Program-made: the position numbers and the translations under genes
Assembly: GCA_965207375.1 (NCBI GenBank)
Contig: OZ242274.1
Span: 1,056,001-1,120,000 of the forward strand
Length of the DNA stretch: 64,000 nucleotides
Reading direction: 5' to 3'
Source: Nitrosopumilaceae archaeon
GTDB taxonomy: Archaea > Thermoproteota > Nitrososphaeria > Nitrososphaerales > Nitrosopumilaceae
The notes under the pieces: model-generated
Told to the model about the DNA's origin: nothing
The model's input: the letters and a program-made list of their open reading frames with translations, nothing else
Database searches by the model: none
Shown: positions 35,913 through 54,897 of the stretch, in pieces
Layout: each line of letters opens with the position of its first letter
How positions within the stretch are numbered: position 1 is the stretch's first letter

Positions 35913-37922
35913 TTAATTTGCAGTCTCTATTTTCTTCAAGGTGTCAGCTATTTGTTGCCATAATGGATTAGAATATTTTTGAGTGTTGTTTTGAGCCTCT
36001 GCTGCAGTCATAGGATTATCATGTTCTGTAATGTTAAATGCTGCCAAGACTCTATTCCATAAATCAGCTTGTTCTTTTACAGCTTCAATTAAAGTTGCAT
36101 TTATCGTGTATGGTGATTCTGGTACTGGTTCTACTGTAGGTGTTGGTTCTACTGGTTCAACCTGTGGTGTATCTTGAGCAATATTTGATGTGTGATTAAT
36201 CTGTGGTACGTGTATTTCCTGTGGCTCTTGTGGTGGTGTATTTTGTGTTGCATTTTGCTGTTGCTGCTGTTGTTGCTGCTGCTGCTGTTGTTGTTGCTGT
36301 GCAATTGCAGCCTCACGCTCTTGTAAGATATTTGCAATCTTGACCCATAATGGACTAGAGTATTTCTTTGTATTTGCCTGAGCCTCTGCTGCAGTAAGTG
36401 GATTATCATGTTGTATCACTCCAAATGCTGCAAGTGCTCTATTCCATCTGTCAACGTGTTGGTGACCGTGATGTACTTGACTTGCAAGGTACTTTATATC
36501 CTCAATTAGTTCTGGATCAGCTGTAGGTATTAGTATAGATTCTGGTACAATGTATGGTGTATCTTGTGCAATATTTGATGTATGATTAATCTGTGGTACA
36601 TGTATTTCCTGTGGTGAATCTTGAGGTTGCTGTGCGGCTGCATCCCTTGCAGCCTCTAATTTCTTTAATTCTTCATATACCAAATTCCAAAATGGCACGT
36701 TGCTGTATTTTTCTACATTGGCTAGAGCCTCTTCTGCAGTCATAGGATTAGAGTGTTCTATTTCTCCAAATGCTGCCAAGACCCTATTCCATAAATCAAC
36801 GTGTTCTGCACCAAGCTGCGTTTGTGTTGCCATTATCTTTGCACCGTCTATTACTGATGGATCAATTTCATCATACGGATTTTCTGGTATTGGAACGCCA
36901 GTTTTGATGGGGGTTAGGTCACCGCCAATATCATTGTCAGTTATATCAATTGTTATGCTAGAAGACCCAACTATTGTATAAGATGAGTGTGGGCGTATCG
37001 TAAACGTAACACTGCCGTCATTTTCGTTTGCATTATCATTGTTGGTAAATATACCGTAGGCTCTTGTATCTGGAGTTGTTATGTAATTACCTGGTGGTGT
37101 CAAAGAGTCAATGAAATCTCCAGTCTGTGAAATGGTGATATGTACTGCTATGTCCTGACTTGCATCCCACAATGCATTTACTGTTGTGCCTTCAACCACT
37201 GATGGATCCTGCGTATTCCACCTCAAATTACTTATTGTAGGTCCTGTAGGCTGTACAGTGGTAGTAGCACCAAACGAAGCCTCCCAATAATGTTGGCTGC
37301 TTTGTATTATATCTGATGGAGTGTGTGAATGTATCCAGTCATAGAGGTATGGGTTATCTACAGTGCGTTCTACTATTGGTGAAACCTGGACAAGTAGTGA
37401 TTCACCATTTACAACATTTCCTGCGTATGTAGTCCATGAGGCAGTACCTGTATTTGACCCTTCATTGATGGTTATCTTTTTGAAGAGCCAAGGATTGTTG
37501 CCTCTAAATGTTTCAGTGTCGCTGCCAGTGCCACCTACTGTGGCCATATTGAAATTATCACATCTATTTGCTGTACCGTGTGGCTTGGAACTGTGAGATA
37601 ATTGACAGTCATCAATTTGTACCCAAAATTCTATTTTCTCTCCTGTTTTGAGGCTCTCATCTAGAGTTACAGTTACTGTGAAGGGTTGGCCATGAGCTGT
37701 ATTACTGGTTGTGACTTGGGCCTTGTTTATCTTGCCATCATCTCTATAAAATTGAGGGGACATTGTAACGGATGAATCCTCTTGGTGACAGAATTGGTTA
37801 GTCAGTGATTTGGATCTAATGTCCCAACATAACTCATGTTCGGAGAATGCCTCTGGTGTTTGAACACCAAACAATAATGATACTGAAACTGCCATAATAA
37901 CTGCAAAGTATAATGTTTTCAC
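35913..37922 (-). CDS. secreted variable surface protein, copy 1 (hypervariable N-domain, Calx-beta-like domain, 3 helical repeats, Q/P-rich linkers)
   Basis: Signal peptide; NDNANENDGSVTFTI...ITDND; three WNRxLAAF...NP(M/L)TAxEA...KY..P.W repeats; paralog at 52643-54778. Confidence 0.85.
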   Translation of the reverse strand: MKTLYFAVIMAVSVSLLFGVQTPEAFSEHELCWDIRSKSLTNQFCHQEDSSVTMSPQFYRDDGKINKAQVTTSNTAHGQPFTVTVTLDESLKTGEKIEFWVQIDDCQLSHSSKPHGTANRCDNFNMATVGGTGSDTETFRGNNPWLFKKITINEGSNTGTASWTTYAGNVVNGESLLVQVSPIVERTVDNPYLYDWIHSHTPSDIIQSSQHYWEASFGATTTVQPTGPTISNLRWNTQDPSVVEGTTVNALWDASQDIAVHITISQTGDFIDSLTPPGNYITTPDTRAYGIFTNNDNANENDGSVTFTIRPHSSYTIVGSSSITIDITDNDIGGDLTPIKTGVPIPENPYDEIDPSVIDGAKIMATQTQLGAEHVDLWNRVLAAFGEIEHSNPMTAEEALANVEKYSNVPFWNLVYEELKKLEAARDAAAQQPQDSPQEIHVPQINHTSNIAQDTPYIVPESILIPTADPELIEDIKYLASQVHHGHQHVDRWNRALAAFGVIQHDNPLTAAEAQANTKKYSSPLWVKIANILQEREAAIAQQQQQQQQQQQQQQQNATQNTPPQEPQEIHVPQINHTSNIAQDTPQVEPVEPTPTVEPVPESPYTINATLIEAVKEQADLWNRVLAAFNITEHDNPMTAAEAQNNTQKYSNPLWQQIADTLKKIETAN

Positions 37923-37931
37923 AAAATTAAC

Positions 37932-37950
37932 GGGGGGGGGGTTCTAAAAA
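37932..37950 (-). promoter_or_regulatory. TATA-like box TTTTTAGA followed by a C10 homopolymer, 9 nt before the GTG start
   Basis: Plus strand G10 at 37932-37941 then ttctaaaaa; box begins about 28 nt before the start codon. Confidence 0.6.
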
Positions 37951-38038
37951 TGTTGCGATTTGAACCAAGAGGTAAAATGAATCCATAATTGCCATCTGAG
38001 ACATGATTCATAATTAGATCTGGGCACGGATTTTTGCT

Positions 38039-38146
38039 CTTGTTAGGCGTGATTTTCTAATTACGACTCACCTCTTAGAGGAAACAGGAATATCCGTATG
38101 GACCCTAAACTTGTTAGGCGTGATTTTCTAATTACGACTCACCTCT
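38039..38146. repeat. two identical 37-bp direct repeats separated by a 34-bp unique spacer (CRISPR-like mini-array; no cas genes in window)
   Basis: cttgttaggcgtgattttctaattacgactcacctct at 38039-38075 and 38110-38146. Confidence 0.85.
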
Positions 38147-38404
38147 CTGGATTATTTTGACTGCATTTTACCTATACGTACAAACATCAAAAAATGTCTG
38201 TATCTGTTACCTTTGCTTTGAATTTATGGTAATTTTAGGCATCAAATTACCTTTTTAAAAATAGAACAAAAATCTAGGATGATGTTAACTGTTACAAATG
38301 TTTCATGTATCTAGATGAACAGTTATGCCTGTATGATTTTAGATGATCTGAGAAAACCACAGATCAGGCACAACATACAAAAACCAGATAATCGTTTCAC
38401 ATAT

Positions 38405-40000
38405 GTGCAGACAAAATTTATTTTTGTGACAGGCGGTGTTATGTCTGGCCTTGGAAAGGGTGTAACTACTTCCTCTATTGCCAAACTATTGCAACTGACC
38501 AATCAAAAAGTATCTTGTATCAAGATAGATCCATACCTAAACTATGATGCAGGTACGATGAATCCTGTAGCTCATGGGGAGGTCTTTGTCACAGAGGATG
38601 GAGGAGAATGTGATATGGATATTGGAAACTATGAGCGATTTCTAAATCAAAATATTCCAAAATCCCACAATATAACAACTGCCCAGGTTTATTCTAGTGT
38701 TATTGAGGCAGAAAGAAAGGGACAATATCTAGGTGCATGTGTTCAAATCATTCCCCATGTAACTGATGAAATTAAAAAAAGAATAAAGTTGGTTGCAGAA
38801 TCTGAAGAATTGGATATTCTAGTTGTAGAATGCGGCGGAACCGTAGGCGACATTGAAAGTCTACCATTTTTGGAGGCGTTAAGACAGATGAGAGTAGAGG
38901 CTGGATCAGAAAATGTATTGTTTGTACATGTTACACTAGCCCCATCACTAGAGGTGGTAGGGGAGCAAAAAACCAAACCCACACAGCACAGCGTTCAAGA
39001 ATTGCGCAGAATCGGTATTCAACCAGACCTGCTTGCAGTAAGATGTACACAACCGTTGGAGGAAAAGACAAAACAAAAGATTGCATTATTTACCAATGTG
39101 GGAACCAAAGACGTGTTTTCATGTCATGATGTAAAATCAATATTTATGGTTCCACAGATTCTATATGAGCAGGGAATCATTGATACTATATTCAAAAAAT
39201 TTGACAAAGTAGGATTGGTAAACACTGCAAAAAGCTGGGACAAATGGAGTGTCATAGTTCATAACATGACAAATCATGCAGGCAAGGTAAACATAGCAAT
39301 GGTTGGAAAATATGTAACACTAGCAGACAGCTATGTAAGTGTAAATCATGCACTCAAACATGCGGGAGCAAAAATTGGAAAATCGATTTTGATAGACTGG
39401 ATTGATTCTGAAGAGTTGGGAAATACCAGCAAACTGCAAAACTATGATGGAATTTTGGTGCCTGGAGGGTTTGGTACTAGGGGCGCTGAGGGAATCATTC
39501 AGGCAGCAAATCTTGCAAGAGAGAAAAATATTGCATATCTTGGAATTTGTTTTGGATTTCAGCTGGCAGCAGTTGCGTTTGGCCGCAATGTTTGCAATTA
39601 CAAAGAAGCAAACTCTACTGAAATCAATCCCGACACCGAAAATCCAATTATTGATCTGCTGCCAGAGCAAAAAAAGATCTCTGATATAGGGGGCTCACTG
39701 AGACTAGGAGCAAACGACATTCATATACAGGATAACACACTTGCAAGACGCATCTACAATTCAGATATTATTTCAAAAAGGCACCGTCACAGATATGAAA
39801 TAAACAAAGACTATATCCGTGAATTTGCAGACAAGGGATTAATTTTTACCGGACAAAGTGATAATGGTAAAAGAATGGAGATCTTGGAAATTCCAGATCA
39901 TAAATTTTTCCTAGGTGTGCAGTATCACCCAGAATTTAGCAGCAGGCCCGGTTTTCCTGAGGAATCTTTTGAGGCCTTTGTGAGTGCTGCAGCAGGCTAG
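38405..40000 (+). CDS. pyrG: CTP synthase
   Basis: [37 protein letters not shown]; GTG 38405 preferred to 38315. Confidence 0.97.
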
Positions 40001-40419
40001 CAGTATTGCTTTAACCTCTTGATAGAATCGTCAATTTTTGGCAGATCAGACTTAAAATCAGAATTGCCCTCTAAGAGTCTAGTATAATATACGTCAGCAT
40101 CATCTACTGCCTTTATGATGTCTGCCTTGTAGCAAATCATTGCCTTTTCAATAATTTCTGTATCCTTTTCTAATTCTGATAATGTGGATGTATCTGTCAG
40201 ACTTGTACGTAGTCTGTTTGCAATGGGTTTGAGTTTGGGTGTATTTTTTGTGGCTTCTGATTGCAAAATAGAGCCAAACATCGCACCTGTATCTGCAATT
40301 TCTGGACTGTCTGAAATTCGGTGCAATCGCCTGTTATAGTGATTTAATGCACGCATTATAATCTCAAACCCTCCCTCGTTTTTGATAAAAATAGAACCAA
40401 GCCATGTTTTTTCTGCCAA
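39997..40419 (-). CDS. hypothetical protein
   Basis: 140-aa helical ORF in an operon-like run. Confidence 0.75.
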   Translation of the reverse strand: MAEKTWLGSIFIKNEGGFEIIMRALNHYNRRLHRISDSPEIADTGAMFGSILQSEATKNTPKLKPIANRLRTSLTDTSTLSELEKDTEIIEKAMICYKADIIKAVDDADVYYTRLLEGNSDFKSDLPKIDDSIKRLKQYC

Positions 40420-40446
40420 TATGACAATGGTATGTTGCTGTAGTAT

Positions 40447-41448
40447 TTATTCCAACTTGCAAATCTCATAAATTTTTTGCCGTGCATCGCGAATTGAGAT
40501 CTTCTTTTTTACATACCCTTTTTCTAAAAGATGACTCAGTGCCAATCTGACGGTTCTCTCAGGTAACAACGTTTTATTTGCAAGCTCCTTTTGAGTCATC
40601 TCGCCTTCGTACTCTAGCGTCTTTAAGAGCAATTTTGAGCTAGGTGGCATGCTTAATAGCTCCTTTGCAAGATTTACCTTTTTTGCAAGTGCAGAAATTG
40701 CAGTAGAATCTTGTTTTAATCTGATTATTTTGGCAGCAGGAGAGAATCTAGAACACTCTACTAGTTTTTTTACGTTATACCTGATAATGCCGTCTAAAAC
40801 AACCTCACAGTGCATTCTTGCAGAAATATCATCAATCTCGATGGTACTATCATTGGATACTATAAGGGGTCTGCGTGTAACATCAAGCGAATTGACAGAA
40901 ATAATTCCAAATACTGGAGATTCTTGAAAAATCACGGGTCCTCCTGCAGACATTGAATATGCCGATGAGCCTATGGGGGTGGAAATAATTATTCCGTCAC
41001 TGTTGTCATGCCAGACCTCCTGTCCGTTTACACGCAGGGTGTGCTCCATCAACATTGCACTTTTAGATGAAAAAACTGCAACATCATTTAAAATGGTGTA
41101 GGTATTTTTCCCGTCTATTTTCACACCAAGCCTTGGAACCTCCTCGACTTCGTATTTCTTCCTCTTTAGTTTAGATACATATGATACAAACTCTTTGTAA
41201 TCAATTTGTGCCAAAAATCCACTAGCTTCGCCCTCGCTGATTCCAATTACTGGAGTTGTGGCATCACGTGTGTGGTGAAAGTAATTTCGTACTCCCTTAT
41301 CTCCCCCTAAAACCAAAATACAATCTGCTGATTTTGCCTTGGATTTTGGGCCTATGGTAAAATTACCAATGTCTGCATCATCTAAAATTTTCTTAATTTT
41401 TTTAATCGATGATTCAGATACGTCTGTACTGTATATTCCAATCTGCAC
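40447..41448 (-). CDS. NAD kinase-family protein fused to a C-terminal winged HTH
   Basis: LGGD, LND, DGIIISTPIGSSAYSMSAGGP; C-terminal MTQKELA...TVRLAL..L.EKGYV. Confidence 0.85.
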   Translation of the reverse strand: MQIGIYSTDVSESSIKKIKKILDDADIGNFTIGPKSKAKSADCILVLGGDKGVRNYFHHTRDATTPVIGISEGEASGFLAQIDYKEFVSYVSKLKRKKYEVEEVPRLGVKIDGKNTYTILNDVAVFSSKSAMLMEHTLRVNGQEVWHDNSDGIIISTPIGSSAYSMSAGGPVIFQESPVFGIISVNSLDVTRRPLIVSNDSTIEIDDISARMHCEVVLDGIIRYNVKKLVECSRFSPAAKIIRLKQDSTAISALAKKVNLAKELLSMPPSSKLLLKTLEYEGEMTQKELANKTLLPERTVRLALSHLLEKGYVKKKISIRDARQKIYEICKLE

Positions 41449-41485
41449 ATGGAAATATCAAAATTGTATAATAAAAGCCTACAAA

Positions 41486-42358
41486 CTAGACCTGCTTGAA
41501 ATCAAGCATGTTATAAAAATACGATGCATTAGTAGAAACTGCACCCTTTTCTGGAATTTTTTGCAATCCTATCTGTTTAGTTTCTAATGCAGCCTGTACA
41601 GAACCACCTGCAAAGCACAATGCCCACAATGAATCTCTTTCTTTTAGTATAGTACAGGTAAATATGGCACCAAATATGTCTCCGATTCCTGTCGTATCAT
41701 AAACCTCTTTGTTTGGAATCTTCAAAGAGTACATCCTGTTACCGTCTAGCATCGATATTTGGGTTTTGTTGGTACAAAGCACGTATTTTACACCTAGTTT
41801 TTGTAATTTTTTCATACCCTCAATATCTGATCTGCCTACAAGTTTTTCCATCTCTTCGACATTTGCCTTGATTGCAGTTACGCCCAAAAGATCAATATCT
41901 GTTTTTTCTAAAAATATTCTTGACTCTGCATCTACCCTTCTCAAAAATCCTTGGGGATCCAAAAACACAAACTTTGAATTGCCTTTGATTTTATCAAAGG
42001 TCTCAGAAGATATCTCATCCATAACCGGATTAACAATTACTCCATCTGATTTTGATTCCGTATATGAAATGGGTTCGCACCTGTTTGCAATGTACAGCTG
42101 GCGCTCTGTCCCGTCTATGTTGATTTTAAATTGTGTGGTGGGAATACTTGCTAGTGAATCATCATGCTGAATTTTGTGTGCATCTAAATAGTCAGCACTT
42201 GAAAAATCATCTCCGAATTTTGTATGTAAATTTACATCAAACTTGAATTTTCTAGCCGCATGACTACAATAGCATGCAGAGCCTCCTACCTGTTGATATT
42301 TGGAATCGCCAATGTGTATGTCATCAATTGTACAGTGCGCATAAATGTCCAGCTTCAT
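41486..42358 (-). CDS. PfkB/ribokinase-family kinase
   Basis: GGSACY, LDPQG, DTTGIGDIF. Confidence 0.88.
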   Translation of the reverse strand: MKLDIYAHCTIDDIHIGDSKYQQVGGSACYCSHAARKFKFDVNLHTKFGDDFSSADYLDAHKIQHDDSLASIPTTQFKINIDGTERQLYIANRCEPISYTESKSDGVIVNPVMDEISSETFDKIKGNSKFVFLDPQGFLRRVDAESRIFLEKTDIDLLGVTAIKANVEEMEKLVGRSDIEGMKKLQKLGVKYVLCTNKTQISMLDGNRMYSLKIPNKEVYDTTGIGDIFGAIFTCTILKERDSLWALCFAGGSVQAALETKQIGLQKIPEKGAVSTNASYFYNMLDFKQV

Positions 42359-42377
42359 TTGCTACAAATGATCCATC

Positions 42378-42485
42378 TCAAGATTTAGGGGTTTGCTTTT
42401 TCTTACAGCTTGCACACAATATTTGCCCCTTTCCTGTAATCAACTCGACATTGGAACTAAGACACATGTGACACAGTCCTTTCAT
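42378..42485 (-). CDS. 35-aa CxxC...CxxC zinc-ribbon microprotein
   Basis: MKGLCHMCLSSNVELITGKGQILCASCKKKQTPKS; ends 19 bp before the pfkB-like gene. Confidence 0.65.
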   Translation of the reverse strand: MKGLCHMCLSSNVELITGKGQILCASCKKKQTPKS

Positions 42486-42596
42486 GCTGTTATTTTATAC
42501 GATGATCTTCCATTAAAGAATAGAGGACAAAACGTCTAGTTTGGACTATAAGATATAAACTGCAAGATTATAAGTAGGAAAAAACCATGCCTACCT

Positions 42597-42884
42597 ATGC
42601 CATTAAAACGTGCTAGTAGGGGGCGCACAAAGGGAGGAAAAGGTTCAACAGGCGTTGTACAATGCTCCAACTGCGGTCAGACCGTTCCCAAGGACAAGGC
42701 AAAAAAGGTCACATCTAGATTAAACTTGGTAGAGCACACACTAGCAAAGGAGCTTCGCGCACAGGGCGCATATATTGCATCTCCCAAGGTACTTAACTGG
42801 TATTGTATTTCATGTGCTATTCATTTTAAGATTCTAAAAATTAGATCCGCAGATAATAGACGAAAGCGTGGCAGGCTGCGATAA
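42597..42884 (+). CDS. rps26e: 30S ribosomal protein S26e
   Basis: KRASRGR, CSNCG..VPKDKA, YCISCAIH. Confidence 0.96.
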   Translation: MPLKRASRGRTKGGKGSTGVVQCSNCGQTVPKDKAKKVTSRLNLVEHTLAKELRAQGAYIASPKVLNWYCISCAIHFKILKIRSADNRRKRGRLR

Positions 42885-42885
42885 T

Positions 42886-43458
42886 TCAGTCTAACTTTTT
42901 GATAATAGTAACAATTCTTTGAATCAGGGTAATGCCTGCAATTATTATTACAATTATGACTGCAATTTCCATCATTGCAGGAATCATTCCAATTATTGCA
43001 ATTACTAACAACCTTTCTGCCCTTTCGCCAATTCCAATTCCTTGTAATTTTATATTCAGAGCATCTGCCTTTGAGCGAGCATAACTTACCAACAAAGACA
43101 GTGTGATTGCAAGTACAACTAGATGTGGTTCTGCATGACCTCCAACAAGAATTCCCAAAAAGATTGCAACCTCTGCAATCTTGTCAAACATTGAATCCAA
43201 AAATGAGCCCTTGGCCGATGTTTTTTTGGTGACCCTTGCAACCTGTCCATCAACAATATCAAAAAATCCTGAAATCAAAAGCAAAACCCCTCCTAAAATT
43301 AATGCATACTCAAAACCTATGCCGTAAACAATTGCAGAAATAAATGCAAATGCCAACCCGATTGTTGTCCAAAAATTTGGAGACATTCCTGTACCTGCAA
43401 AGATACGTCCTATGCCTTCTAGTGTTGGTTTGAGACGTTCTCTTAGGTTGTTTAGCAT
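42886..43458 (-). CDS. pgsA: CDP-alcohol phosphatidyltransferase (archaetidylinositol-phosphate synthase-like)
   Basis: D-x2-DG-x2-AR...G-x2-LD-x3-D; SYAR, GERAER. Confidence 0.9.
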   Translation of the reverse strand: MLNNLRERLKPTLEGIGRIFAGTGMSPNFWTTIGLAFAFISAIVYGIGFEYALILGGVLLLISGFFDIVDGQVARVTKKTSAKGSFLDSMFDKIAEVAIFLGILVGGHAEPHLVVLAITLSLLVSYARSKADALNIKLQGIGIGERAERLLVIAIIGMIPAMMEIAVIIVIIIAGITLIQRIVTIIKKLD

Positions 43459-43723
43459 GGGATTTTACAAGTTTTGATGTATATATAAAATAGATCCGGC
43501 ATTTGTTCTGTTGGATTGTGTATATTGATTTGCCAAATGATGATGCAAGCCTCTTTACAATGAGACTTTCATTCGTACCCATACATAGGACAAGAGAATA
43601 GCTTTGCTGTGACAATACACTCCATTATAGAAACATCAGAAATTAGATTCAAAAATGCAATTCTTGATAAATGAATCTCACAGACGATTGATTTAATACC
43701 TTTTTAATCCATAATATTACAAT

Positions 43724-43967: not shown

Positions 43968-45404
43968 TAGCGATGCGCAAAAGTTCCTACCCAGCGATTC
44001 TACACAGGACTACGCCAGCACATACAAAATAATGAGAAATCACGCCTGATTTTTTCCAAACTGTACAAAAAAAATACACAAGGTAAGAAAATATCTGCAA
44101 GAACAGTAAAAGATCAGATCGATTTAATCCAAACATGAAAGAGGCCAAGCTCTTATCTGATATACGCAGAACCGAAAAGGAAGGACGTCGTGCCCGAAGA
44201 TTAAGTATGTTAATCGTACTTGCAAATATGGATTACATAGTCACAGCAGCTGCTGTCACATATAGATGCAACAGAAAAACAGTATCACTGTGGCGTGACA
44301 GAAGAATTCAATACGGAAACAACATAAGTAAAATACTCGAGGCACTTTCAGACAGACCTAGGTCAGGCAGACCTACAAAGATAAGCAAAAAACATCTAGA
44401 CAAAGCCAAATCATGGTGTGACATACGCACATTTACGCCAATAGAGATGCAAAATTATCTTGAAAAAATTTCAGGAGTCAAGTTGAGTCTATCACAGACA
44501 AGACGATACATCAAAAAGTGGGGACACTCTTGCAAAAAAACATCTCCCCTGCACATCAAAAGAGCATCACCTGAATCTGTAGCAAAATGGTATACAAGCA
44601 GCATGGGCAAAGTGAGATACTATGCAAAGCAAGGATATGCAATAGCTACCATGGATGAGTCCCACTTTAAGGACGCAGTGCTTTCTACAAAATACTGGGC
44701 AAAGAGAGGCCTTTGCATATTCATGCCATGGTCAGGCGGACACCACAGATTCTCAATGCTGTGTACTATAACTGATAATGGCAAGCACTTTTTCAATCAT
44801 ACAGACAAAGTAAACACTGACAGCTTTTTAGAGCACATTGAAAAAGTATACCAAAAGGTGGGCAAGATGGTATTGTTTTTGGATGAGGCACCCTGGCATG
44901 CATCTATTGGTGCACAAGAATTTTTCGAAAAACGAGACATTGTATTGATATGGTATCCTGTGGGTCATCCGTATCTTAATCCCGTAGAGGAGATCTGGAG
45001 TGTACTCAAGCGTACAATTGATTACTCTATACGATACTCAGACATCAAGACACATTTGACAGCAGTATACGGATTTATCAAAAAATATGAGTTTGATTAT
45101 GATTTAAAAAAACATTGGAAGAGAAAACCTCCTGCTGGTATAATGCGACCCTTTGTGCGCTCTGACACAAAACACAATGATAGGATCCAGGCATTACAGG
45201 TAAGCAGTAAGCCAAGAAATCGTAACTGAACTATACATGTATTGATGGTTTGTACAATTGTTGTATGTATTTACAAAATGATACCGTGTGGAATCATCAT
45301 GCTGTCTTTGCTTAATCTTGGTGTATTGTGTAAGTTGTGTAAGATTTTATTCCTGCGTCTAGTTTGCTGATTTTGTGCTGGGTACGAACTTTTGCGCATC
45401 GCTA
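43968..45404 (+). mobile_element. IS630-family element, intact
   Basis: TIRs tagcgatgcgcaaaagttcctacccagc / gctgggtacgaacttttgcgcatcgcta, flanked by TA on both sides. Confidence 0.92.
44135..45229 (+). CDS. IS630 transposase
   Basis: RSGRPTK, MDESHF, LDEAPWH, PYLNPVEEIW. Confidence 0.93.
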   Translation: MKEAKLLSDIRRTEKEGRRARRLSMLIVLANMDYIVTAAAVTYRCNRKTVSLWRDRRIQYGNNISKILEALSDRPRSGRPTKISKKHLDKAKSWCDIRTFTPIEMQNYLEKISGVKLSLSQTRRYIKKWGHSCKKTSPLHIKRASPESVAKWYTSSMGKVRYYAKQGYAIATMDESHFKDAVLSTKYWAKRGLCIFMPWSGGHHRFSMLCTITDNGKHFFNHTDKVNTDSFLEHIEKVYQKVGKMVLFLDEAPWHASIGAQEFFEKRDIVLIWYPVGHPYLNPVEEIWSVLKRTIDYSIRYSDIKTHLTAVYGFIKKYEFDYDLKKHWKRKPPAGIMRPFVRSDTKHNDRIQALQVSSKPRNRN

Positions 45405-46210: not shown

Positions 46211-47381
46211 TATCCAAGTACTCCTGTACTACCTCCACGTCCTTGTCCCCTCTGCCAGATAATGTAACCACTATTGACTCTGATTTTTTTGATTTTTTTG
46301 CAACATTGATTGCCTCTGCAATTGCATGTGATGATTCCAATGCAGGAATGATGCCTTCAGTTTGTGTCAATTTTAAAAACGCATCAACTACTTGCTTGTC
46401 TGTGGCACTGTGATATTTTACACGATTAATCTCCTTTAGATGCGCATGTTCAGGACCCACCCCTGGATAATCAAGTCCTGCTGAAATACTGTGCGTCTCC
46501 TTTATCTGACCTTGTTCATCCTGTAGCAGATAAGTCATCATTCCATGTAAAACCCCTCTGCTTCCTGCAGACAGCGTGGCTGAGTGATACTGTGTATTGA
46601 GTCCTTGACCTGCTGCCTCTACACCGATGATGTCTGCATCTGTATCTATCATTGGATAAAACGTACCTATCGCATTTGATCCTCCACCAACACATGCAAT
46701 TACGGTGTCTGGCACTGTTGAAATTGCTTTCATTTGCTGTTTGATCTCTTGGCCTATTATTGCCTGAAAATCTCGTACCATGACAGGATACGGATGCGGT
46801 CCTACGGCAGAACCTAGTAGATAGTATGTGGATTTTACGTTTGTAATCCAGTCTCTTATTGCCTCATTGATTGCATCCTTTAACGTCTGGGAACCTGCTT
46901 TTACGGGATGAACCTTTGAACCAAGCAGATTCATTCTAAACACGTTGAGTTTTTGCCGTATGGTGTCTTTGTAGCCCATGTATACCTCTGCCTTCATTCC
47001 AAGTGCTGCACACGCCATGGCAGTTGCCACTCCATGTTGGCCTGCCCCTGTTTCTGCAATGATTCTTTTTTTCTTCATTCTTTTGGCCAAAAGTGCCTGA
47101 CCTAGGGTATTGTTGATTTTGTGTGCCCCACCATGAAGCAAGTCTTCTCGCTTTAGGTATATTTTTGCCCCACCTATTTTCTCTGTCAGGTTTTTGGCAT
47201 AATACAAAGGCGTGGGTCTTCCTGCATATTCTCTAAGATAATGAGTCAACTCACTTTTGAATTCTTTGTCGTTTTTAATTTTAAGATAATTTTCCTCTAG
47301 TTCCTTGATTGCAGGTACTAGTGTTTCTGGTATGTATCTTCCACCAAACTCTCCAAACCTTCCATCCTTGGGATATCTCAA
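46197..47381 (-). CDS. trpB: tryptophan synthase beta subunit
   Basis: [37 protein letters not shown]. Confidence 0.97.
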
Positions 47382-48154
47382 TACGAATTCACCAATTTCC
47401 TCACATGCTCTTTGATATTATCGCTTTTCATTACGCTAGAGCCTACCAGAAATGCGTCTGCCCCGCATTTTTTCAGATATTGAATGTCTTTGGGCGTGTT
47501 TATGCCGCTTTCTGAGAGTATGGGTATAGTCTTTTCAAACCCGTCTAGTATGTGCCGTGTGGTGTTTAGATCTATTTTTAGCGTGTCTAGATCCCGATTG
47601 TTGATTCCAACCAAATCTGCATCCGTTTTTAACGCATTTTCTAATTCTATTCTTGTATGGGCCTCTACTAGTATTTTGAGTCCCTTTTTGTGACCGTATC
47701 GTATCAGCTCATCGATTCCGTCTAAATATCCCTTGTCAAATAACGACTGGATTAATAAAATATAGTCTGCTCCAATTTTTTGGCCTGCATCTATTTGTAT
47801 TTTATCAATTATGATATCCTTCATTAGCAATGGGACATTTACTGCATCTCTTACCTTGATAAAGTATTGAGGTGATCCACTGAAAAGATATGGCTGTGTC
47901 AAAACAGACAGTGCCTTTGAGCCTCCAGATACCATCTGCCTTGCAATTAGTGCGGGATCTGATGCCGTCCTGATTTTGCCTAGCGACGGAGATGCAAATT
48001 TTATCTCAGTAATTAGTGTGGCATGCGGATTTGTCCTGATGATACCTGTAAGATCTTGGGTAGATTTTTTCATATTTGCAGATACCTCGTATACTCCGTC
48101 ATCTATTGCAGCCTGAGAATTGTTAACTAGTTTTTTGAGAATATTTTCTGTCAA
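47378..48154 (-). CDS. trpC: indole-3-glycerol phosphate synthase
   Basis: [25 protein letters not shown]. Confidence 0.96.
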
Positions 48155-49194
48155 TCTGTCACCTCTTTTAATTTTTTGAGATCTCCTGTATCTCGAACAA
48201 ACTCCTCTAATAGCCTGTATGCACGTCCGCTCTTTATTGTGTGTAGTGCAGTCTGTACTGCCTCCTTGAAATCATCTTCAACATTTGCTACAATCAACCC
48301 GCCTGCTGCATTGAGGGCCGTAGTTTCAATCATTGCCTGGTTGGCAGTGTTGTTTAGTACTGTAACAAATGATTTTATCGCATCCTGTTTTGTTTTAATT
48401 TGAATCTGACTCATTGATGACTTGTGCAATCCTACCGTTTCAGGATCCACAGAATCGGTCAAAATTTTACCGTCTTTTAGAATTGCTATTTTGTTTGCAG
48501 CACTAGTTGAGAATTCATCCATTCCATCATCTGATATGACCGTCATTATGTTTTGTGCCCCCTTTTGTCCTAGTATTGTAGGCAGTCTGCACAAAAAATC
48601 AGCCGAGGATACGCCGACTAGTTGGTTTTTTACCCCTGCTGGATTACACAGCGGACCTAATAGATTAAACGCCGTTCTTTTTGCAATCTGCTTTCTTGCA
48701 AAAGACACATGTTTCATTGCAGGGTGAAATTTTTGTGCAAACATAAAACAAATTCTATGTTTCTCTAGGATTTGTGCAATTGACGCAGGCCCCTGATTCA
48801 GATCATATCCAAAATATTCAAAAATATCTGCACTGCCTGATACTCCTGAACTTGAACGATTACCGTGCTTTGCAACAGTTCCGCCTGCTGCAGCAACTAC
48901 AAATGATGCCGTGGTAGATACATTAAATGTTTGAAGTCTGTCTCCTCCGGTACCGCACATGTCAATTATGGTGCTGTGATTTTTAGGCTCAATTTTGAGT
49001 GAATATTCTTGCATTTTGTCTAGCATTGCCAATAGTTCATCGTCAGTTTCCCCCTTTGTTGCAAGCTTTGACAAAAATTGGATATTTTCGTCATCACTTG
49101 TTTTTCCAGATAAAATCTCTGTCATGATTTGATTCATTTGATTATAGCTCAGACTGGTTTTTTCCTGTAGCATTGAGATCATATCTGATATCAT
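48151..49194 (-). CDS. trpD: anthranilate phosphoribosyltransferase
   Basis: DMCGTGGD..TFNVST, KHGNRS. Confidence 0.96.
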   Translation of the reverse strand: MISDMISMLQEKTSLSYNQMNQIMTEILSGKTSDDENIQFLSKLATKGETDDELLAMLDKMQEYSLKIEPKNHSTIIDMCGTGGDRLQTFNVSTTASFVVAAAGGTVAKHGNRSSSGVSGSADIFEYFGYDLNQGPASIAQILEKHRICFMFAQKFHPAMKHVSFARKQIAKRTAFNLLGPLCNPAGVKNQLVGVSSADFLCRLPTILGQKGAQNIMTVISDDGMDEFSTSAANKIAILKDGKILTDSVDPETVGLHKSSMSQIQIKTKQDAIKSFVTVLNNTANQAMIETTALNAAGGLIVANVEDDFKEAVQTALHTIKSGRAYRLLEEFVRDTGDLKKLKEVTD

Positions 49195-49778
49195 TGTTTT
49201 ACCTCCTCTATGAAATTGCTCAGGATTTTTTTGCCCTCTTGCGTCATAATTGATTCGGGATGAAACTGAACTCCCTCTATGAGATAGTTTCGGTGTCGTA
49301 TTGCCATGATTTCACCGTCATCTTCTGCAGTTGCAGTTACCTCCAAAATGTTTGGAATTACAGTCTTGTCTCCAACTAGTGAGTGATACCTTGTGGCTCT
49401 AAATGGATTCTTTACTCCTTTGAATAATTTTGAATTTTTGTGACGTACGGGACTGGTTTTTCCATGTCTTACACATCCTGCATTTGTGACCTTGCCTCCA
49501 AATGCGTGTATGATGCCCTGATGTCCTAGACACACTCCGAGTATTGGTTTTGTCGGCCCCATCTCTCTGATAACCTCACTACATACTCCAAAATATTTTT
49601 TATCTTCAGGTGTTCCGGGACCCGGTGAAATTATTATTGCATCATAATTTTTTACCTTGATATCTGTTAATGTTATTTTGTCGTTTCTTATGACATCTGA
49701 ATCCACTCCCAACTCACCTAGGTACTGTGCTATATTGTATACAAATGAGTCATAATTGTCAATGATTAAAAATCTCAT
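49191..49778 (-). CDS. trpG: anthranilate synthase component II
   Basis: IDNYDSF, SPGPG, GVCLGHQ, QFHPES. Confidence 0.96.
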   Translation of the reverse strand: MRFLIIDNYDSFVYNIAQYLGELGVDSDVIRNDKITLTDIKVKNYDAIIISPGPGTPEDKKYFGVCSEVIREMGPTKPILGVCLGHQGIIHAFGGKVTNAGCVRHGKTSPVRHKNSKLFKGVKNPFRATRYHSLVGDKTVIPNILEVTATAEDDGEIMAIRHRNYLIEGVQFHPESIMTQEGKKILSNFIEEVKQ

Positions 49779-51124
49779 GATGTCTCCTTTAATGACTGAA
49801 TCATTGCATCTGCCTTGTGTTGTGTCTCTTTGAACTCGCTTTCTGGAACCGAATCTGAAACAATGCCTGCCCCAGACTGGACAAATCCAGAATTTCCATC
49901 AATGAATATGCTTCTTATGGCTATTGCAAAATCACAGCATCCATTAAACGAAAAATATCCTACAGCCCCCGCATATGTGCCCCTTGCCTCTGATTCTAAC
50001 TCATCTATTATTTGCATGGCTCGAACCTTTGGAGCTCCTGATACAGTACCTGCCGGAAAAACTGCCTTGAATGCATCAAACATGTCCTTTTTGGAATCTA
50101 GTGTTCCAACAACGTGTGTAACTATGTGCTGAACATGACTGAATCGTTTGATTTTCATCAATTCCTCAGGATGTACAGTTCCGTATCTGCAAACTCTTCC
50201 AATGTCATTTCTTCCCAAATCTACAAGCATTGTGTGCTCTGCTAATTCCTTTTGGTCCGACAGCAGCTCGGCTGCTAGCTCTTGGTTTGTTTGCTCATCG
50301 TCTGTAACCTTTTTGGTTCCTGCAATTGGAAATGTTTCAACCTTGTTTTGCGTAACTCTTACTAGCATCTCAGGTGATGCTCCAATTATTGTTTTGGTGT
50401 TGTGTTTTAGATGATACATGTAAGGTGAAGGATTTAGACTTCTCAAGGTTTTATACAGTGTTAGATTGTCCCCATTTGCCTCAAAGTTGAATTTTCTAGA
50501 CAATACGACTTGAAAAATATCTCCATCGTGTATGTATTGTTTTGCCTTTTTGACAATAGTTGAAAATTTTTGTTCATCTGCGTTTGGAACAATCTCTGAT
50601 GCTCTAAACTCTTTGAATTCTCCTTGTGATATTTTGAACTGCTCAAATCTGTTTTGATCATAATAAAAATAAAATAATTTCTCATGTAAATTATCATACA
50701 ACAATCCATCGTCATAAATCCCAAATTCCATTAATGGTTCTATTGTATCATGTGAATCTGCAATGTCCTCTACTAGTCTAATGGCATCATAGTTTACAAC
50801 TCCTACTGCCCCACCTAGATATCTGTATGATTGTTCGTCGTTATTTCCCAACAGTTTTTTTAGCTCAGAAAATGGATCACTTGTTTTTACCGTCTTGATT
50901 TTACCTTCTTTGGAGATTATCTTGACTTTGTCAGAGTATCCCTTTAGAATTATTTTGGGATCAAATCCCATTACTGAGGTTTCTGCAAGCTTTTCTGGCC
51001 CTGTTAGTGATTCGAACAAAAACGAATGTGAATAGTTGCGAGAGATTTTATTGTAAATTTGAAACTGGTTTTCAGATAACTCTAGAGGTATTATTTTTGG
51101 TTGGGAATTTCCAAAGGTATCCAC
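49775..51124 (-). CDS. trpE: anthranilate synthase component I
   Basis: GDIFQVVLS, NPSPYM, EHTMLVDLGRND, PAGTVSGAPK. Confidence 0.96.
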   Translation of the reverse strand: MDTFGNSQPKIIPLELSENQFQIYNKISRNYSHSFLFESLTGPEKLAETSVMGFDPKIILKGYSDKVKIISKEGKIKTVKTSDPFSELKKLLGNNDEQSYRYLGGAVGVVNYDAIRLVEDIADSHDTIEPLMEFGIYDDGLLYDNLHEKLFYFYYDQNRFEQFKISQGEFKEFRASEIVPNADEQKFSTIVKKAKQYIHDGDIFQVVLSRKFNFEANGDNLTLYKTLRSLNPSPYMYHLKHNTKTIIGASPEMLVRVTQNKVETFPIAGTKKVTDDEQTNQELAAELLSDQKELAEHTMLVDLGRNDIGRVCRYGTVHPEELMKIKRFSHVQHIVTHVVGTLDSKKDMFDAFKAVFPAGTVSGAPKVRAMQIIDELESEARGTYAGAVGYFSFNGCCDFAIAIRSIFIDGNSGFVQSGAGIVSDSVPESEFKETQHKADAMIQSLKETS

Positions 51125-51198
51125 CCATAAACAAAATTACAGTCAAATATTATTTAAGTTGTAGAGTTTTTTACCTCGATATTCTGCCTAGATTACGT

Positions 51199-51216
51199 TA
51201 CCGTACCGGTACGGTA
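51199..51216. promoter_or_regulatory. perfect 18-bp palindrome between divergent trpE and a Zn-finger ORF
   Basis: taccgtaccggtacggta, next to TTTATA at about 51219. Confidence 0.55.
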
Positions 51217-51247
51217 CCTTTATATCATATTTGATCGCATGTATATC

Positions 51248-51409
51248 ATGCAGGTATTATCTATTTACAGGCCAACGTTGAGCAAATCCTCTGCTCATAG
51301 GGTAGGGTGTCATGTATGTGGAAAGGGATTAGAGGACGGCTTTTCTGTAACTGCTAAAACAATTCGCAATGATATTGTATTATTTTGTGATGCACACTAC
51401 AAAATCTAG
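51248..51409 (+). CDS. 53-aa zinc-finger microprotein (alternative start 51239)
   Basis: MQVLSIYRPT...GCHVCGK...LFCDAHYKI; CxxC...CxxH; TATA upstream. Confidence 0.7.
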   Translation: MQVLSIYRPTLSKSSAHRVGCHVCGKGLEDGFSVTAKTIRNDIVLFCDAHYKI

Positions 51410-51468
51410 TCTACGTCTTACTAATCACAAACAACTAGGATTATAATTGTAAAATATCTAAAATCTTT

Positions 51469-52539
51469 ATGGATGATCTTTATAGATTTTTACCAGAGGA
51501 GTTGGAAGATATAGTAATCCGATTGGGCCAGAAGCGATTCAGGGCTGATCAAATCTTACTTCCGTTATACTACAAATATCCCCAAAAAATTGACGACATA
51601 AGGCAGCTATCTAAAATATTTCGTCAATTGCTAAATGAAAAAAAATACACAATCGGTTCTACTACTGAGATACACCGTGTGGTAAGCGATGATGGCTGCA
51701 CTACAAAATTATTGCTAAATTTACCAGATGGTACTCCTGTTGAATCTGTACTTATGCAGTATGGGCCAACAAAAATACTTGGACATCCACGATCTACTGT
51801 ATGTGTGTCTACGCAGGTGGGCTGTGCAATGGGATGTGTTTTTTGTGCCACAGGACAGATGGGTTTTAAAAGACAGATGAGGGCAGAAGAAATTGTAGGT
51901 CAGGTAATTCACTTTTCCAAAATGCTAAAAGAAAAAGATCAACATATTACAAATATTGTCTTTATGGGAATGGGTGAGCCGCTTGCAAACTATGATGAAA
52001 CCATACGTGCGATTAGAATTCTAACCCATCCTAGGGGTTTTGGATTGGGACAGAGGCACATTACAGTTTCTACCATCGGAATCATTTCTGGAATTGACAG
52101 ACTTGCACAAGAGAATCTGCAAATAGGCCTTGCTATTTCTTTGCATGCTCCAAACGATAAACTACGCAGAAAATTAATTCCCACTGCAGGACCTACCTCT
52201 GTTGCCGATATTATTGCAGCAGGACGCAGATATTTTATGAAAACTGGTAGACGTGTTACTTTTGAATATGCCTTGATTTCAGGAATAAATGATACTGTTG
52301 AAGTGGCACATGAATTGGCCAGACTTTTACAAGGTAACGGCTCACATGTCAATTTGATTCCAATTAATGCAACAGATGGTGATTTTAACAGACCTGCAAG
52401 AAAGCAGGTCTTGGAATTTGAGAAAATTTTACTTCTTGCAGGCATAAATTGTACCGTTCGGGTTGAAAAGGGTGCAGAAATTGCTGCTGCCTGTGGTCAG
52501 CTGCGTACTGATGTTGTAAATAACCAAACTGTACATTAG
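51469..52539 (+). CDS. rlmN: radical SAM RNA methyltransferase, RlmN family
   Basis: QVGCAMGCVFCATG, FMGMGEPL, ISLHAPN, AACGQL. Confidence 0.92.
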   Translation: MDDLYRFLPEELEDIVIRLGQKRFRADQILLPLYYKYPQKIDDIRQLSKIFRQLLNEKKYTIGSTTEIHRVVSDDGCTTKLLLNLPDGTPVESVLMQYGPTKILGHPRSTVCVSTQVGCAMGCVFCATGQMGFKRQMRAEEIVGQVIHFSKMLKEKDQHITNIVFMGMGEPLANYDETIRAIRILTHPRGFGLGQRHITVSTIGIISGIDRLAQENLQIGLAISLHAPNDKLRRKLIPTAGPTSVADIIAAGRRYFMKTGRRVTFEYALISGINDTVEVAHELARLLQGNGSHVNLIPINATDGDFNRPARKQVLEFEKILLLAGINCTVRVEKGAEIAAACGQLRTDVVNNQTVH

Positions 52540-52642
52540 AGTTAATTGGCAAATTCTGCCAAAATTTACTTAAGATTTGCAACATGTGCTGACTTGTGTT
52601 TTATCAAATACTGGCAACAAATGTTAGACCGTTAAGCCGTGT

Positions 52643-54778
52643 TTAATTTGTAGCCTCTATTTTCTTTAAGGTGTCAGCTATTTGTTGCCATAGTGGATTA
52701 GAATATTTTTGGGTATTGTTTTGGGCTTCGGCTGCAGTCATAGGATTATCATGTTCTGTAATGTTAAATGCTGCCAAGACTCTATTCCATAAATCAGCTT
52801 GTTCTTTTACAACTTCAATTAAAGTTGCATTTATCGTGTATGTTGGTTCAGGTACTGGTTCTACTATAGGTGTTGGTTCTACTATAGGTGTTGGTTCTAC
52901 TATAGGTGTTGGTTCTACTATAGGTGTTGGTTCTACTATAGGTGTTGGTTCTACTATAGGTGTTGGTTCTACTATAGGTGTTGGTTCTACCTGTGATGTA
53001 TCTTGAGCAACGGCTGATGTTTGGTTAACCTGTGGTACGTGTATTTCCTGTGGCTCTTGCTGTGGTGTATTTTGTGTTGCATTTTGCTGCTGCTGCTGTT
53101 GTTCAATTGCAGCCTCACGCTCTTGTAAGATATTTGCAATCTTGACCCATAATGGACTAGAATATTTCTTTGTATTTGCCTGTGCCTCTGCTGCAGTAAG
53201 TGGATTATCATGTTGTATCACTCCAAATGCTGCAAGTGCTCTATTCCATCTGTCAACATGTTGGTGACCGTGATGTACTTGACTTGCAAGGTACTTTATG
53301 TCCTCAATTAGTTCTGGGTCAGCTGTAGGTATTGGTATAGATTCTGGTACAATTATCGGTGTATCTTGTGCGATATTTGATGTGTGGTTAATTTGTGGTA
53401 CGTGTATTTCCTGTGGTTGCTGTGGTGAATCTTGAGGTTGCTGTGCGGCTGCATCCCTTGCAGCCTCTAATTTAGCCAGTTCTTGAGCAACTAAACCCCA
53501 AAATGCATTATTGTATTTTTTTACATTGGCCAGAGCCTCTGCTGCAGTCATAGGATTGTCATGTTGTATTTCTCCAAATGCTGCCAAGACCCTATTCCAT
53601 CTGTCAACGTGTTCTGCACCAAGATGAGTTTGTTGTGCCATTATCTTTGCACCGTCTATTACTGATGGATCAATTTCATCATACGGATTTTCTGGTATTG
53701 GAACACCGGTTGTGAGTCTGGGTTGTCCGTCACCGCCACCATCATCATCCTGTATTAAGATTACAGCACGCGATGGGTCACCTATAGTATATCCATTACC
53801 TGGAAGTAACGTAAATGTGACGCTTCCATCTGCTTCATCTGTGGAATCATCTAATGTAGCTAGACTGACAGTCCGGGCGTTTGATGTTAATATAATTGAC
53901 CTATCGTTCAGTTCAAAATTAAGCCGAGCATATTCTCCTACTTGGGAAGTTCGATAATTTACTGTTACAGGATTTATTGATGTGGCTGGAGGTGATATAG
54001 TTATTTCTGCTATAACGGTAGCACCTTCAATCACTGATACAGGATTAATTGTGGAAGGTAGAATTGTCACTACATTAGCTGTTCCAATCTGTGTCTCCCA
54101 AAAATGTTGGCTAGCATACCTTGCATCAGACGGATTATTTGGATGTATCCACTCATGGAGGTATGGGCTATCTACAGTGCGTTCTACTATAGGTGAAACC
54201 ATGACAAGTAGTGATTCGGGACTGCCACCATAATTGGCTACATTTGTAGACCATGAGGCACTACCTGTATTTGACCCTGCATTGATGGTTATCTTTTTGT
54301 AGGTGACAGGAAGGTAGGTGGGGTTGGTTCCTAAATCCCTGTCGGCCGTGCTACTGTAGGTTGCAAATGTTTCAGTGTCGCTGCTAGTGCCGCCGAGGGT
54401 GGCATGAGTGGTACTACTACATAGGTTTGCTGCACTTGACCTGACAGAAGCGTGAGATGCATGACAGTCATTAAGCTGTGCATAAAATTCTATTTTCTCT
54501 CCTGTTTTGAGGTGCTCATCTAGAGTTACAGTTACTGTGATGGGTTGACCAGAAGCGGGATTGTTTAGTGTGACTAGGGCTCTGTTTATCTCATTGTCAT
54601 CTGTATAAAATTGAGGGGCCATTGTAACGGATGGCACAATTGGGTGACAGGCAGTGTGGAAATTCGTTTCGCCGTTTATGCGGCAAAGCACATGGTCAGA
54701 AAATGCCTCTGGTGTTTGAACACCGAGCAATAATGATATAGAAACTGCCATAATAACTGCAAAGTATAATGTTTTCAC
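52643..54778 (-). CDS. secreted variable surface protein, copy 2
   Basis: Paralog of 35913-37922; TLDDSTDEADGSVTFTL...IQDDD Calx-beta-like motif; 7x VEPTPI. Confidence 0.85.
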   Translation of the reverse strand: MKTLYFAVIMAVSISLLLGVQTPEAFSDHVLCRINGETNFHTACHPIVPSVTMAPQFYTDDNEINRALVTLNNPASGQPITVTVTLDEHLKTGEKIEFYAQLNDCHASHASVRSSAANLCSSTTHATLGGTSSDTETFATYSSTADRDLGTNPTYLPVTYKKITINAGSNTGSASWSTNVANYGGSPESLLVMVSPIVERTVDSPYLHEWIHPNNPSDARYASQHFWETQIGTANVVTILPSTINPVSVIEGATVIAEITISPPATSINPVTVNYRTSQVGEYARLNFELNDRSIILTSNARTVSLATLDDSTDEADGSVTFTLLPGNGYTIGDPSRAVILIQDDDGGGDGQPRLTTGVPIPENPYDEIDPSVIDGAKIMAQQTHLGAEHVDRWNRVLAAFGEIQHDNPMTAAEALANVKKYNNAFWGLVAQELAKLEAARDAAAQQPQDSPQQPQEIHVPQINHTSNIAQDTPIIVPESIPIPTADPELIEDIKYLASQVHHGHQHVDRWNRALAAFGVIQHDNPLTAAEAQANTKKYSSPLWVKIANILQEREAAIEQQQQQQNATQNTPQQEPQEIHVPQVNQTSAVAQDTSQVEPTPIVEPTPIVEPTPIVEPTPIVEPTPIVEPTPIVEPTPIVEPVPEPTYTINATLIEVVKEQADLWNRVLAAFNITEHDNPMTAAEAQNNTQKYSNPLWQQIADTLKKIEATN
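52856..52990. repeat. 18-bp perfect tandem repeat, 7.5 copies (VEPTPI)
   Basis: Unit tggttctactataggtgt. Confidence 0.95.
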
Positions 54779-54787
54779 AAAATTAAC

Positions 54788-54805: not shown

Positions 54806-54897
54806 TGTTGCGATTTGAGCAAGTGTACCAGATCAGATCAAGCTCAAATCCGCACCTAATACAATAAATTGATTATTCATTATATTCCTACATAAAA

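Follow-up and report, generated by a model that had tools for sequence, protein, structure and literature searches.

Introduction

Simple-repeat phase and antigenic variation is a cornerstone of the way bacteria interact with their hosts and phages. In Neisseria, the Opa proteins are beta-barrel outer-membrane proteins encoded at about ten dispersed full-length loci with a pentanucleotide repeat. In the vlp genes of Mycoplasma hyorhinis (poly-A) and the Neisseria opc and porA genes (poly-C/G), a homopolymer between the -35 and -10 elements of a sigma-70 promoter sets expression, and the vlp genes, a multigene family, encode variable surface proteins whose C-termini are repetitive. Here, we describe a family of secreted-protein genes with 5' poly-C tracts in a Nitrosopumilaceae archaeon. 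Two members, copies A and B, lie in the stretch analysed (the window: 64,000 nucleotides (nt), contig OZ242274.1, positions 1,056,001 to 1,120,000), on a chromosome that we call C1. An earlier reading of the window from its letters (the original prediction) had proposed that the two genes belong to a dispersed surface-protein family with a conserved framework and hypervariable loops, a candidate system of antigenic variation.

Our literature search found no archaeal surface-protein family that is phase-variable through a simple repeat; absence from the search is no proof of absence from print. In the text available, a statistical tract survey of 18 archaeal genomes dealt mainly with poly-A/T (PMC2831843), and a 2025 review names the archaeal distributions of phase variation as future work (PMC11868660). 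We propose, at a probability of about 0.6, that the nine members of the family form an Opa/Vlp-like contingency-locus repertoire of secreted proteins, with the poly-C tracts as candidate switches.

Results

Two Mosaic Genes Belong to a Nine-Copy Family

The proteins of copies A and B are 64% identical (470/729, BLASTP). Their DNA identity is strongly regional: 93% in the signal peptide (75/81), 73% in the next ~200 codons, which we call the head (420/573), 47% over the ~120 codons of a middle module (159/336), and 92% in the C-terminal half (885/963). Both open reading frames (ORFs) are thus real mosaic paralogs, with the near-identical ends that had been described. The proposed shared-codon framework was also borne out. 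Each of the four DNA motifs quoted for it occurs once per copy, on the minus strand, and the synonymous difference in 20-codon windows rises from 0.00 in the framework to 0.5–0.78 in the loops and the middle module. The framework is therefore conserved as DNA, beyond protein-level constraint. The Cys-bounded loops were found as quoted, and their four Cys are invariant in all nine paralogs of the family. The most divergent part of the gene is the middle module and not the loops.

We searched the 10,288 ORFs of at least 60 amino acids (aa) in the assembly with three parts of copy A, using phmmer. The head was found in nine ORFs (copies A to I), all on C1, all intact and 669–728 aa long, and the C-terminal repeat (C-repeat) was found in 20. 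The family is thus dispersed, with loci scattered on C1 well beyond the two in the window, as had been supposed.

A Poly-C Tract Precedes Every Copy

Homology upstream of the nine genes begins ~45 nt before the start codon, and the flanks beyond are unrelated. The shared promoter block reads CAAATCG-CAACATTTTTAGAA-(C)n-GTTAATTTT-GTG. Its order is the same in all nine copies: a TATA-like box, a tract of C9–C12, 8–10 bases, and a GTG or TTG start. The tract has 9 C in copy A, 10 in B, C, D, E, F, and H, 11 in G, and 12 in I. The flanks are identical in copies A, B, E, and G, yet the tracts are C9, C10, C10, and C11.

We then counted G/C runs of at least 9 on C1. There were 19, versus 1.19 expected from base composition (16-fold). 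Sixteen of them lie at the 5' ends of C-repeat superfamily genes, and all 16 have C on the sense strand (Table 1). Two hallmarks of contingency loci are therefore present: a 5' homopolymer, seen in 9 of 9 promoters and in the sister genes 1663139 and 1705335, and a tract excess that is concentrated on secreted-protein genes.

The two sister genes have near-identical 5' ends with C11 and C10, respectively. In C1:1663139, C11 is in frame (MKTLHFTVTPPPVNY...), reading from ATG-AAG-ACA... through T-P-P-P into the signal peptide. In C1:1705335, C10 loses the frame and a stop follows after 18 codons. A third subfamily has an upstream GTG/ATG (MKALSLVF...) 22 nt after the TTTAATTA word. This upstream start would join the mature protein only with C8 or C11; the assembled tracts are C9 and C10.

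In the third subfamily (near 1437272, 1761000, 1969816, and 2021174), the tract sits inside a ~67-nt segment with a 21-nt direct repeat, AGTTTTCATGGyATCTGCCGC, on either side; the repeat is a duplicate of the sequence with which the signal-peptide coding region begins. The segment appears to be an insertion or duplication from which the switch arose. A 5793-aa ORF (C1:1778011-1795404) has an N-terminal hydrophobic segment and a run of 11 G on the sense strand, and may encode a further tract-controlled giant surface protein.

Homopolymers of at least 9 are error-prone on several sequencing platforms, so the length differences might be sequencing or assembly errors laid over identical true lengths. 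We consider this improbable. C1 carries 19 such tracts, an independent metagenome-assembled genome (MAG) has tracts of 10 and 13 at the same position (see below), and miscalled lengths would leave the existence and placement of the tract intact.

The Layout Is Conserved and Its Spacing Is Consistent with Leaderless Transcription

A scan of genome contigs with a distant homolog, P0036, as the query led to relatives in a public Thaumarchaeota MAG, at a guanine-plus-cytosine (GC) content of 0.61–0.64. The first has TTTAAAAA-CA-C13-TGTGCC-ATG (that is, GTTTAAAAACA-C13-TGTGCC-ATG) with a spacing of 21 nt; the second has TTTAAGTA-CG-C10-ACCACCAACC-ATG (that is, TGTTTAAGTACG-C10-ACCACCAACC-ATG) with a spacing of 22 nt. 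Sequence, GC content, and tract length all differ between the MAG and C1, but the TATA-like word, the poly-C, and the 21–22 nt to the start are retained. The region upstream of a third homolog (L038) is full of N and G/C runs and is unreadable. The census and these homologs together establish that the poly-C tracts are real, over-represented, family-specific, and conserved in position during evolution.

In 1188 non-family genes of C1, TATA-like 8-mers peak 21–24 nt before the start (10, 18, 9, and 8 counts at these positions, versus a background of 2.07 per position). Archaeal transcription starts ~25 bp from the TATA centre, and we therefore infer that many mRNAs of this genome are leaderless. 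The family stands at the short edge of this peak, at 18–21 nt in the same scan. The TATA-to-start spacing is 19 nt in A, F, and H, 20 nt in B, D, E, and gene 313754, and 21 nt in G, I, and, if the aligned TTG is taken, C. A tract longer or shorter by one or two C would therefore bring a copy into the usual register or take it out.

The same block could belong to ordinary lineage-specific paralogs under concerted evolution, with homogenised ends, old divergence in the middle, and a poly-C that is a fixed promoter element without switching. Such an account would suit the uniform length of most promoter tracts and the ratios of nonsynonymous to synonymous change (dN/dS), which are mostly below 1 (see below); a tract kept as a promoter feature in distant homologs could also have a binding or structural function. 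Against it, copies with identical flanks differ only by tract length. A fixed promoter element does not account for the coding tracts of the sister subfamilies, where 1 nt makes or breaks the frame, and the 16-fold excess of long runs is concentrated on one secreted-protein superfamily. We regard concerted evolution around a fixed element as somewhat unlikely.

Partner Switching Points to Gene Conversion among the Copies

When all nine copies are aligned, they are seen to change partners along the gene. The first Cys-pair loop comes in four versions, {A,C}, {B,G,I}, {D,E,F}, and {H}, the last of which is also carried by the ENA protein P0005; columns 25–60 show these four groups. Columns 73–84 group {B,F,H} versus {C,D,E,G}, columns 133–144 group {A,C,D,E,F}, {B,I}, {G}, and {H}, and the first C-terminal repeat groups {A,C,F,G,H} versus {B,D,E,I}. 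The middle module differs in all nine copies, and its mean proportion of synonymous differences (pS), 0.66, is saturated.

We applied our own implementation of the pairwise homoplasy index (PHI). Permutations reached values as low as the observed one in 0 of 1000 cases for the head, 0 of 1000 for the C-terminal half, and 152 of 1000 (not significant) for the middle module. When polymorphic sites were permuted in a GENECONV-like test, 24 of the 36 pairs had a shared tract reached by 0 of 2000 permutations and 35 were below 0.05 uncorrected; this test is inflated by rate heterogeneity along the gene, and partner switching is the firmer evidence. The visible switching tracts and the PHI results strongly indicate that short DNA tracts have been exchanged between copies by gene conversion, one of the two processes that the original prediction had offered. 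The pattern also makes clear that conversion homogenises the signal peptide and the C-terminal half and reshuffles a small pool of head loop variants.

The other process on offer was diversifying selection. We used crude pairwise Nei-Gojobori counts, with the strands of the fold model as an independent definition of the framework; pairwise counts were preferred to tree-based per-site dN/dS because recombination invalidates a single tree. The pooled dN/dS was 0.63 for the strands and 0.77 outside them. By segment, it was 1.01 for the first Cys loop, 1.21 for loop 60-68, and 1.25 for loop 152-160; one short strand with few changes gave 2.03. Overall, a dN/dS above 1 was not demonstrated, some loops alone reaching ~1.0–1.25. 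Uniform synonymous divergence, which would have spoken against the proposal, was not found either: pS ranged from 0.06 to 0.65 by segment and from 0.00 to 0.78 by window. On these counts, selection appears relaxed or mixed and coalescence strongly non-uniform; positive selection is not proven.

Loop diversity could nevertheless stem from point mutation under positive selection, without recombination, and the loops with pN/pS ~1.0–1.25 would agree with it. Identical loop variants recur among the copies in differing combinations, however, none of the 1000 PHI permutations matched the head, and synonymous divergence follows the same segments. We find this explanation very improbable.

Conserved frameworks with variable loops also bear a general resemblance to cassette-type antigenic variation (Vls, pilE/pilS) and to diversity-generating retroelements (DGRs). 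The former combine one expression site with promoterless silent cassettes, and the latter place a reverse transcriptase and a template repeat near the variable gene. Neither arrangement is found here. Outside the nine genes, a tblastn search with the nine head-plus-middle regions found only the Calx-like modules of three full-length genes and one headless remnant, which excludes Vls-type head cassettes. Every copy has its own promoter, and none of the 40 reverse transcriptase (RVT_1) matches of the assembly lies on C1, in line with the original prediction, which had seen no sign of a DGR. A cassette or DGR mechanism is barely credible at this locus.

The remnant, of a tenth member (approximately C1:1254055-1254702), is 5'-truncated and lacks head residues 1-218. 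What is left of it runs from the last part of the head through the middle module into the C-repeats, which are incomplete; it has neither the promoter block nor a G/C run of at least 7.

The Proteins Combine an Orphan Head, a Calx-Beta Fold, and Helical Repeats

Each protein begins with a Sec-type signal peptide, MKTLYFAVIMAVSISLLLGVQTPEAFS, judged by eye. The head (~200 aa) was modelled as a beta-sandwich in which the four invariant Cys bound two loops. The model is weak (predicted local distance difference test (pLDDT) score of 61, with loops below 50). By itself, the order of the strands predicts that loops 60-68, 114-126, and 152-160 are at the sandwich end that faces away from the middle module. 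The term 'antibody-like', used for the family in the original prediction, thus suits it loosely, as a beta-sandwich with variable loops, and in no closer sense.

For the middle module, the top Foldseek match was NCX1 CBD12 (E 2.1e-9). Superposed on CBD1 (2dpk), it gave a template-modelling (TM) score of 0.69 and a root-mean-square deviation of 3.7 over 122 columns at 21% identity, with a module pLDDT of 76–86. The Calx-beta family PF03160 was unmatched in the A and B proteins even at E<=1, so the 'Calx-beta-like' label holds for the modelled fold but not for a Pfam match. The module ends in an acidic stretch, D-x-D-D-G-G-D.

The C-terminal half consists of three ~75-aa repeats, each a confident four-helix unit (pLDDT 91.2), joined by linkers of poly-Q, PQ-rich segments, and EPxPx units. 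Across the nine paralogs, the longest Q run varies from 6 to 42 residues and the EPxPx units number 0 to 7, copy A having seven. Such in-frame linkers would be a second slippage-prone class of repeat, altering stalk length rather than reading frame.

Pfam and NCBIfam gave no name to any part of the A or B proteins. For the C-repeat fold, Foldseek returned 0 matches at E<=0.001, the best VIA-align Z was 5.7 (a generic four-helix arrangement), the best PDB profile match had an E of 0.25, and the ESM Atlas held no usable match; its best score for the head was 0.77. Another C-repeat protein carries three Bact_surface_Ig-like domains, which fits the idea that the C-repeat is a shared module of exported proteins with differing heads.

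The Head Has a Narrow Distribution

In a search of 5.8 billion proteins, the head was covered only by its own paralogs and by P0005 (46% identity), and the remaining matches concerned the Calx-like part only. Among 60 relatives, only genome G021 matched, weakly (29% identity). The C-repeat was found in four proteins from elsewhere (P0032, P0034, P0035, and P0036), and P0036 also has a recognisable head, 31% identical, that keeps the second Cys pair. A scan of genome contigs with the head alignment matched 87 pattern stretches and confirmed none. In JGI metagenome contigs, an exact scan with the promoter-plus-tract word gave 0 matches and the C-repeat alignment gave 0 relatives. A representative-protein search with a 610-position profile gave 2460 matches, mostly giant Calx-beta proteins; the profile also took in the Calx-beta and C-repeat columns by which P0005 and P0036 overhang the head, which makes it a poor gauge of the spread of the head. 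Among the 150 matches listed, the best stretch starts in the head for three, P0004, P0041, and P0144. On these searches, the head is an orphan domain of narrow distribution.

Three large proteins labelled as from bacterial MAGs (P0007, P0009, and P0016) interleave Calx-beta repeats with a diverged C-repeat, HVNRW.RAL..LG...MTAAEA...Y..PVW. By this motif, the four-helix C-repeat module is shared across domains, possibly within one habitat.

A poly-C census in four same-genus genomes was uninformative: the one sampled, G003, has a GC content of 0.52–0.71, at which long C runs are expected. That range comes from seven 5-kb regions (L023-L029) of G003, compared with 0.38 for C1, a very large gap for genomes that carry the label of one genus.

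Source Chromosome and Neighbourhood

ORFs of at least 150 aa cover 78% of C1, which is 2.157 Mb long with a GC content of 0.382 and carries a full-length archaeal small-subunit (SSU) rRNA (1445 bits). Genomes of relatives in the same family measure ~1-2 Mb. The other contigs, C2-C4, make up 2.14 Mb of the 4.30-Mb assembly, with only 10–18% in ORFs of at least 150 aa. They contain dinucleotide microsatellites of the (CA)n type and ORFs for Ty3-like integrase/RNase H and PiggyBac-type proteins, and hold all 40 RVT_1 matches. Because of the rRNA, the ORF density, the microsatellites, and the retroelement ORFs, we took C1 to be the chromosome of the archaeon and C2-C4 to be eukaryote-like DNA assembled along with it. 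Their content suggests host DNA that was co-assembled with a symbiont; the marker-based contamination figure of 0.06% misses them.

The neighbours of copies A and B in the window are housekeeping genes: threonyl-tRNA synthetase, an arginase-family enzyme, CTP synthase, NAD kinase, tryptophan synthase, a radical-SAM RlmN-like enzyme, and dihydroxy-acid dehydratase. A transposase gene lies between the two copies (Table 1). In contigs from public sequencing runs, a joint skips 269 nt at 45029-45299, in the transposase region.

Table 1. Features of copies A and B and of the transposase (window coordinates), and placement of the 19 G/C runs of at least 9 on C1.
Feature	Position	Strand	Remarks
Copy A, 711 aa	52643-54778	-	ORF list, alignment, fold models
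Copy A signal peptide	54698-54778	-	
Copy A head	54080-54697	-	
Copy A Calx-beta-fold middle module	53717-54079	-	
Copy A C-terminal half	52646-53716	-	three four-helix repeats, Q/P-rich linkers
Copy A promoter block	54779-54817	-	
Copy A spacer	54779-54787	-	GTTAATTTT
Copy A poly-C tract	54788-54796	-	9 nt (G on + strand)
Copy A TATA-like box	54798-54805	-	TTTTTAGA
Copy A conserved upstream block	to 54817	-	CAAATCGCAACA
Copy B, 669 aa	35913-37922	-	ORF list, alignment
Copy B signal peptide	37842-37922	-	
Copy B head	37266-37841	-	
Copy B Calx-beta-fold middle module	36909-37265	-	
Copy B C-terminal half	35916-36908	-	
Copy B promoter block	37923-37962	-	
Copy B spacer	37923-37931	-	
Copy B poly-C tract	37932-37941	-	10 nt
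Copy B TATA-like box	37943-37950	-	
Copy B conserved upstream block	to 37962	-	
Transposase (DDE_3 / HTH_32 / HTH_33)	44135-45229	+	IS630-like by domain content; between both paralogs, adjoins tryptophan operon
Runs 1-9 of 19	promoter tracts of the nine family copies		
Run 10 of 19	before gene 313754-315811		same promoter layout
Two of 19 runs	inside 5' coding region of genes 1663139 and 1705335		
Four of 19 runs	23 nt before annotated ATG of 1435212, 1761000, 1969816 and a broken gene at 2021174		
One of 19 runs	1 nt before ATG of the 5793-aa ORF		
Last two of 19 runs	outside the above placements		

Discussion

We propose that each of the nine genes is a full transcription unit, with a promoter, a Sec-type signal peptide, a variable head, a copy-specific Calx-beta-fold module, and a constant C-terminal half. 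If its mRNA is leaderless, the TATA-to-start spacing would set the position of the transcription start with respect to the start codon. Mispairing of slipped strands at the poly-C would change this spacing by 1 nt and could turn each copy up, down, or off independently of the others. In the sister subfamilies with C-repeats, the tract in the 5' coding region would act as a frameshift switch. The predicted outcome is a stochastic, combinatorial repertoire of exposed proteins, for which a virus or an animal host may be the selective agent. We infer the high frequency of slippage, the gating of expression by tract length, and the exposure at the surface from the arrangement of the genes.

Several observations weigh against this proposal. 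The assembled homopolymer lengths can be miscalled, and Logan contigs from four public runs, built as unitigs, stop in the repeated family regions, with none of those listed at either tract of the window. Seven of the ten promoter tracts (those of the nine copies plus the subfamily-2 gene that shares the promoter block) are C10, for which a fixed element is equally possible. Four of the 20 C-repeat ORFs have no tract, and neither does the weak homolog in G021. We deduce the TATA box, the start of transcription, and the absence of a leader purely from consensus and spacing, and the crude dN/dS is mostly below 1. Finally, the signal peptide indicates that the proteins are secreted, and by the same token they are probably associated with the cell surface; the protein C-terminus has no hydrophobic anchor or known anchoring motif.

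A broader version of the proposal can be put forward tentatively, at a little under even odds. An archaeal contingency locus, in which poly-C that slips at replication shifts the transcription start against the start codon, would toggle ~16 secreted-protein genes, each on its own, while gene conversion reshuffles their exposed loops. It would be the first simple-repeat repertoire of phase and antigenic variation described in Archaea, in a host-associated lineage of ammonia oxidisers. The conserved TATA-polyC-start layout across a secreted superfamily offers a concrete, testable archaeal case, and it suggests a mechanism peculiar to leaderless transcription in archaea. The eukaryote-like contigs hint that C1 may come from an animal-associated symbiont; in that case, the switches could serve bet-hedging at the archaeon-host or archaeon-virus interface.

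How does the family compare with described systems? The original prediction had likened it to the bacterial Vls, Vlp, and Opa systems. With silent cassettes excluded, the Vls part of this analogy falls away; the Opa and Vlp parts stand, with nine recombining loci and with poly-C at the 5' end of every copy, a feature that had escaped the original prediction.

The family shares with the Calx-beta (PF03160) repeat proteins of uncultured bacteria and archaea the Calx-beta fold and, with P0007, P0009, and P0016, the helical module HV(D/N)RW..LAA.G...MTAAEA...Y..P.W. Unlike in those proteins, the Calx-beta module here is below Pfam detection, is single in each protein, and is joined to an orphan head.

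As in vlp and opc/porA, a homopolymer lies within the promoter, and as in vlp, the genes form a multigene family with repetitive C-termini. Here, however, an archaeal TATA-like box lies on one side of the tract and, in what is probably a leaderless mRNA, the start codon on the other; we propose that the tract affects the register in which transcription starts relative to that codon. Unlike the Vlp proteins, the family proteins are not lipoproteins.

Like the Neisseria Opa genes, the nine copies are dispersed full-length loci with their own promoters, their hypervariable segments recombine, and a simple repeat lies at the 5' end; in Neisseria it switches each locus independently, as we predict here. 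The closest parallel is the sister subfamily with the tract in the signal-peptide coding sequence. The differences are an archaeal host, a homopolymer as the repeat, and a tract that in the nine copies lies in the promoter and not in the coding sequence. No Pfam or NCBIfam match links the proteins to the Opa beta-barrel, and the models consist of two beta-sandwiches and helical repeats. Judged by fold and sequence, membership in the opa, vlp, and opc/porA families is excluded, and the likeness would be one of mechanism only.

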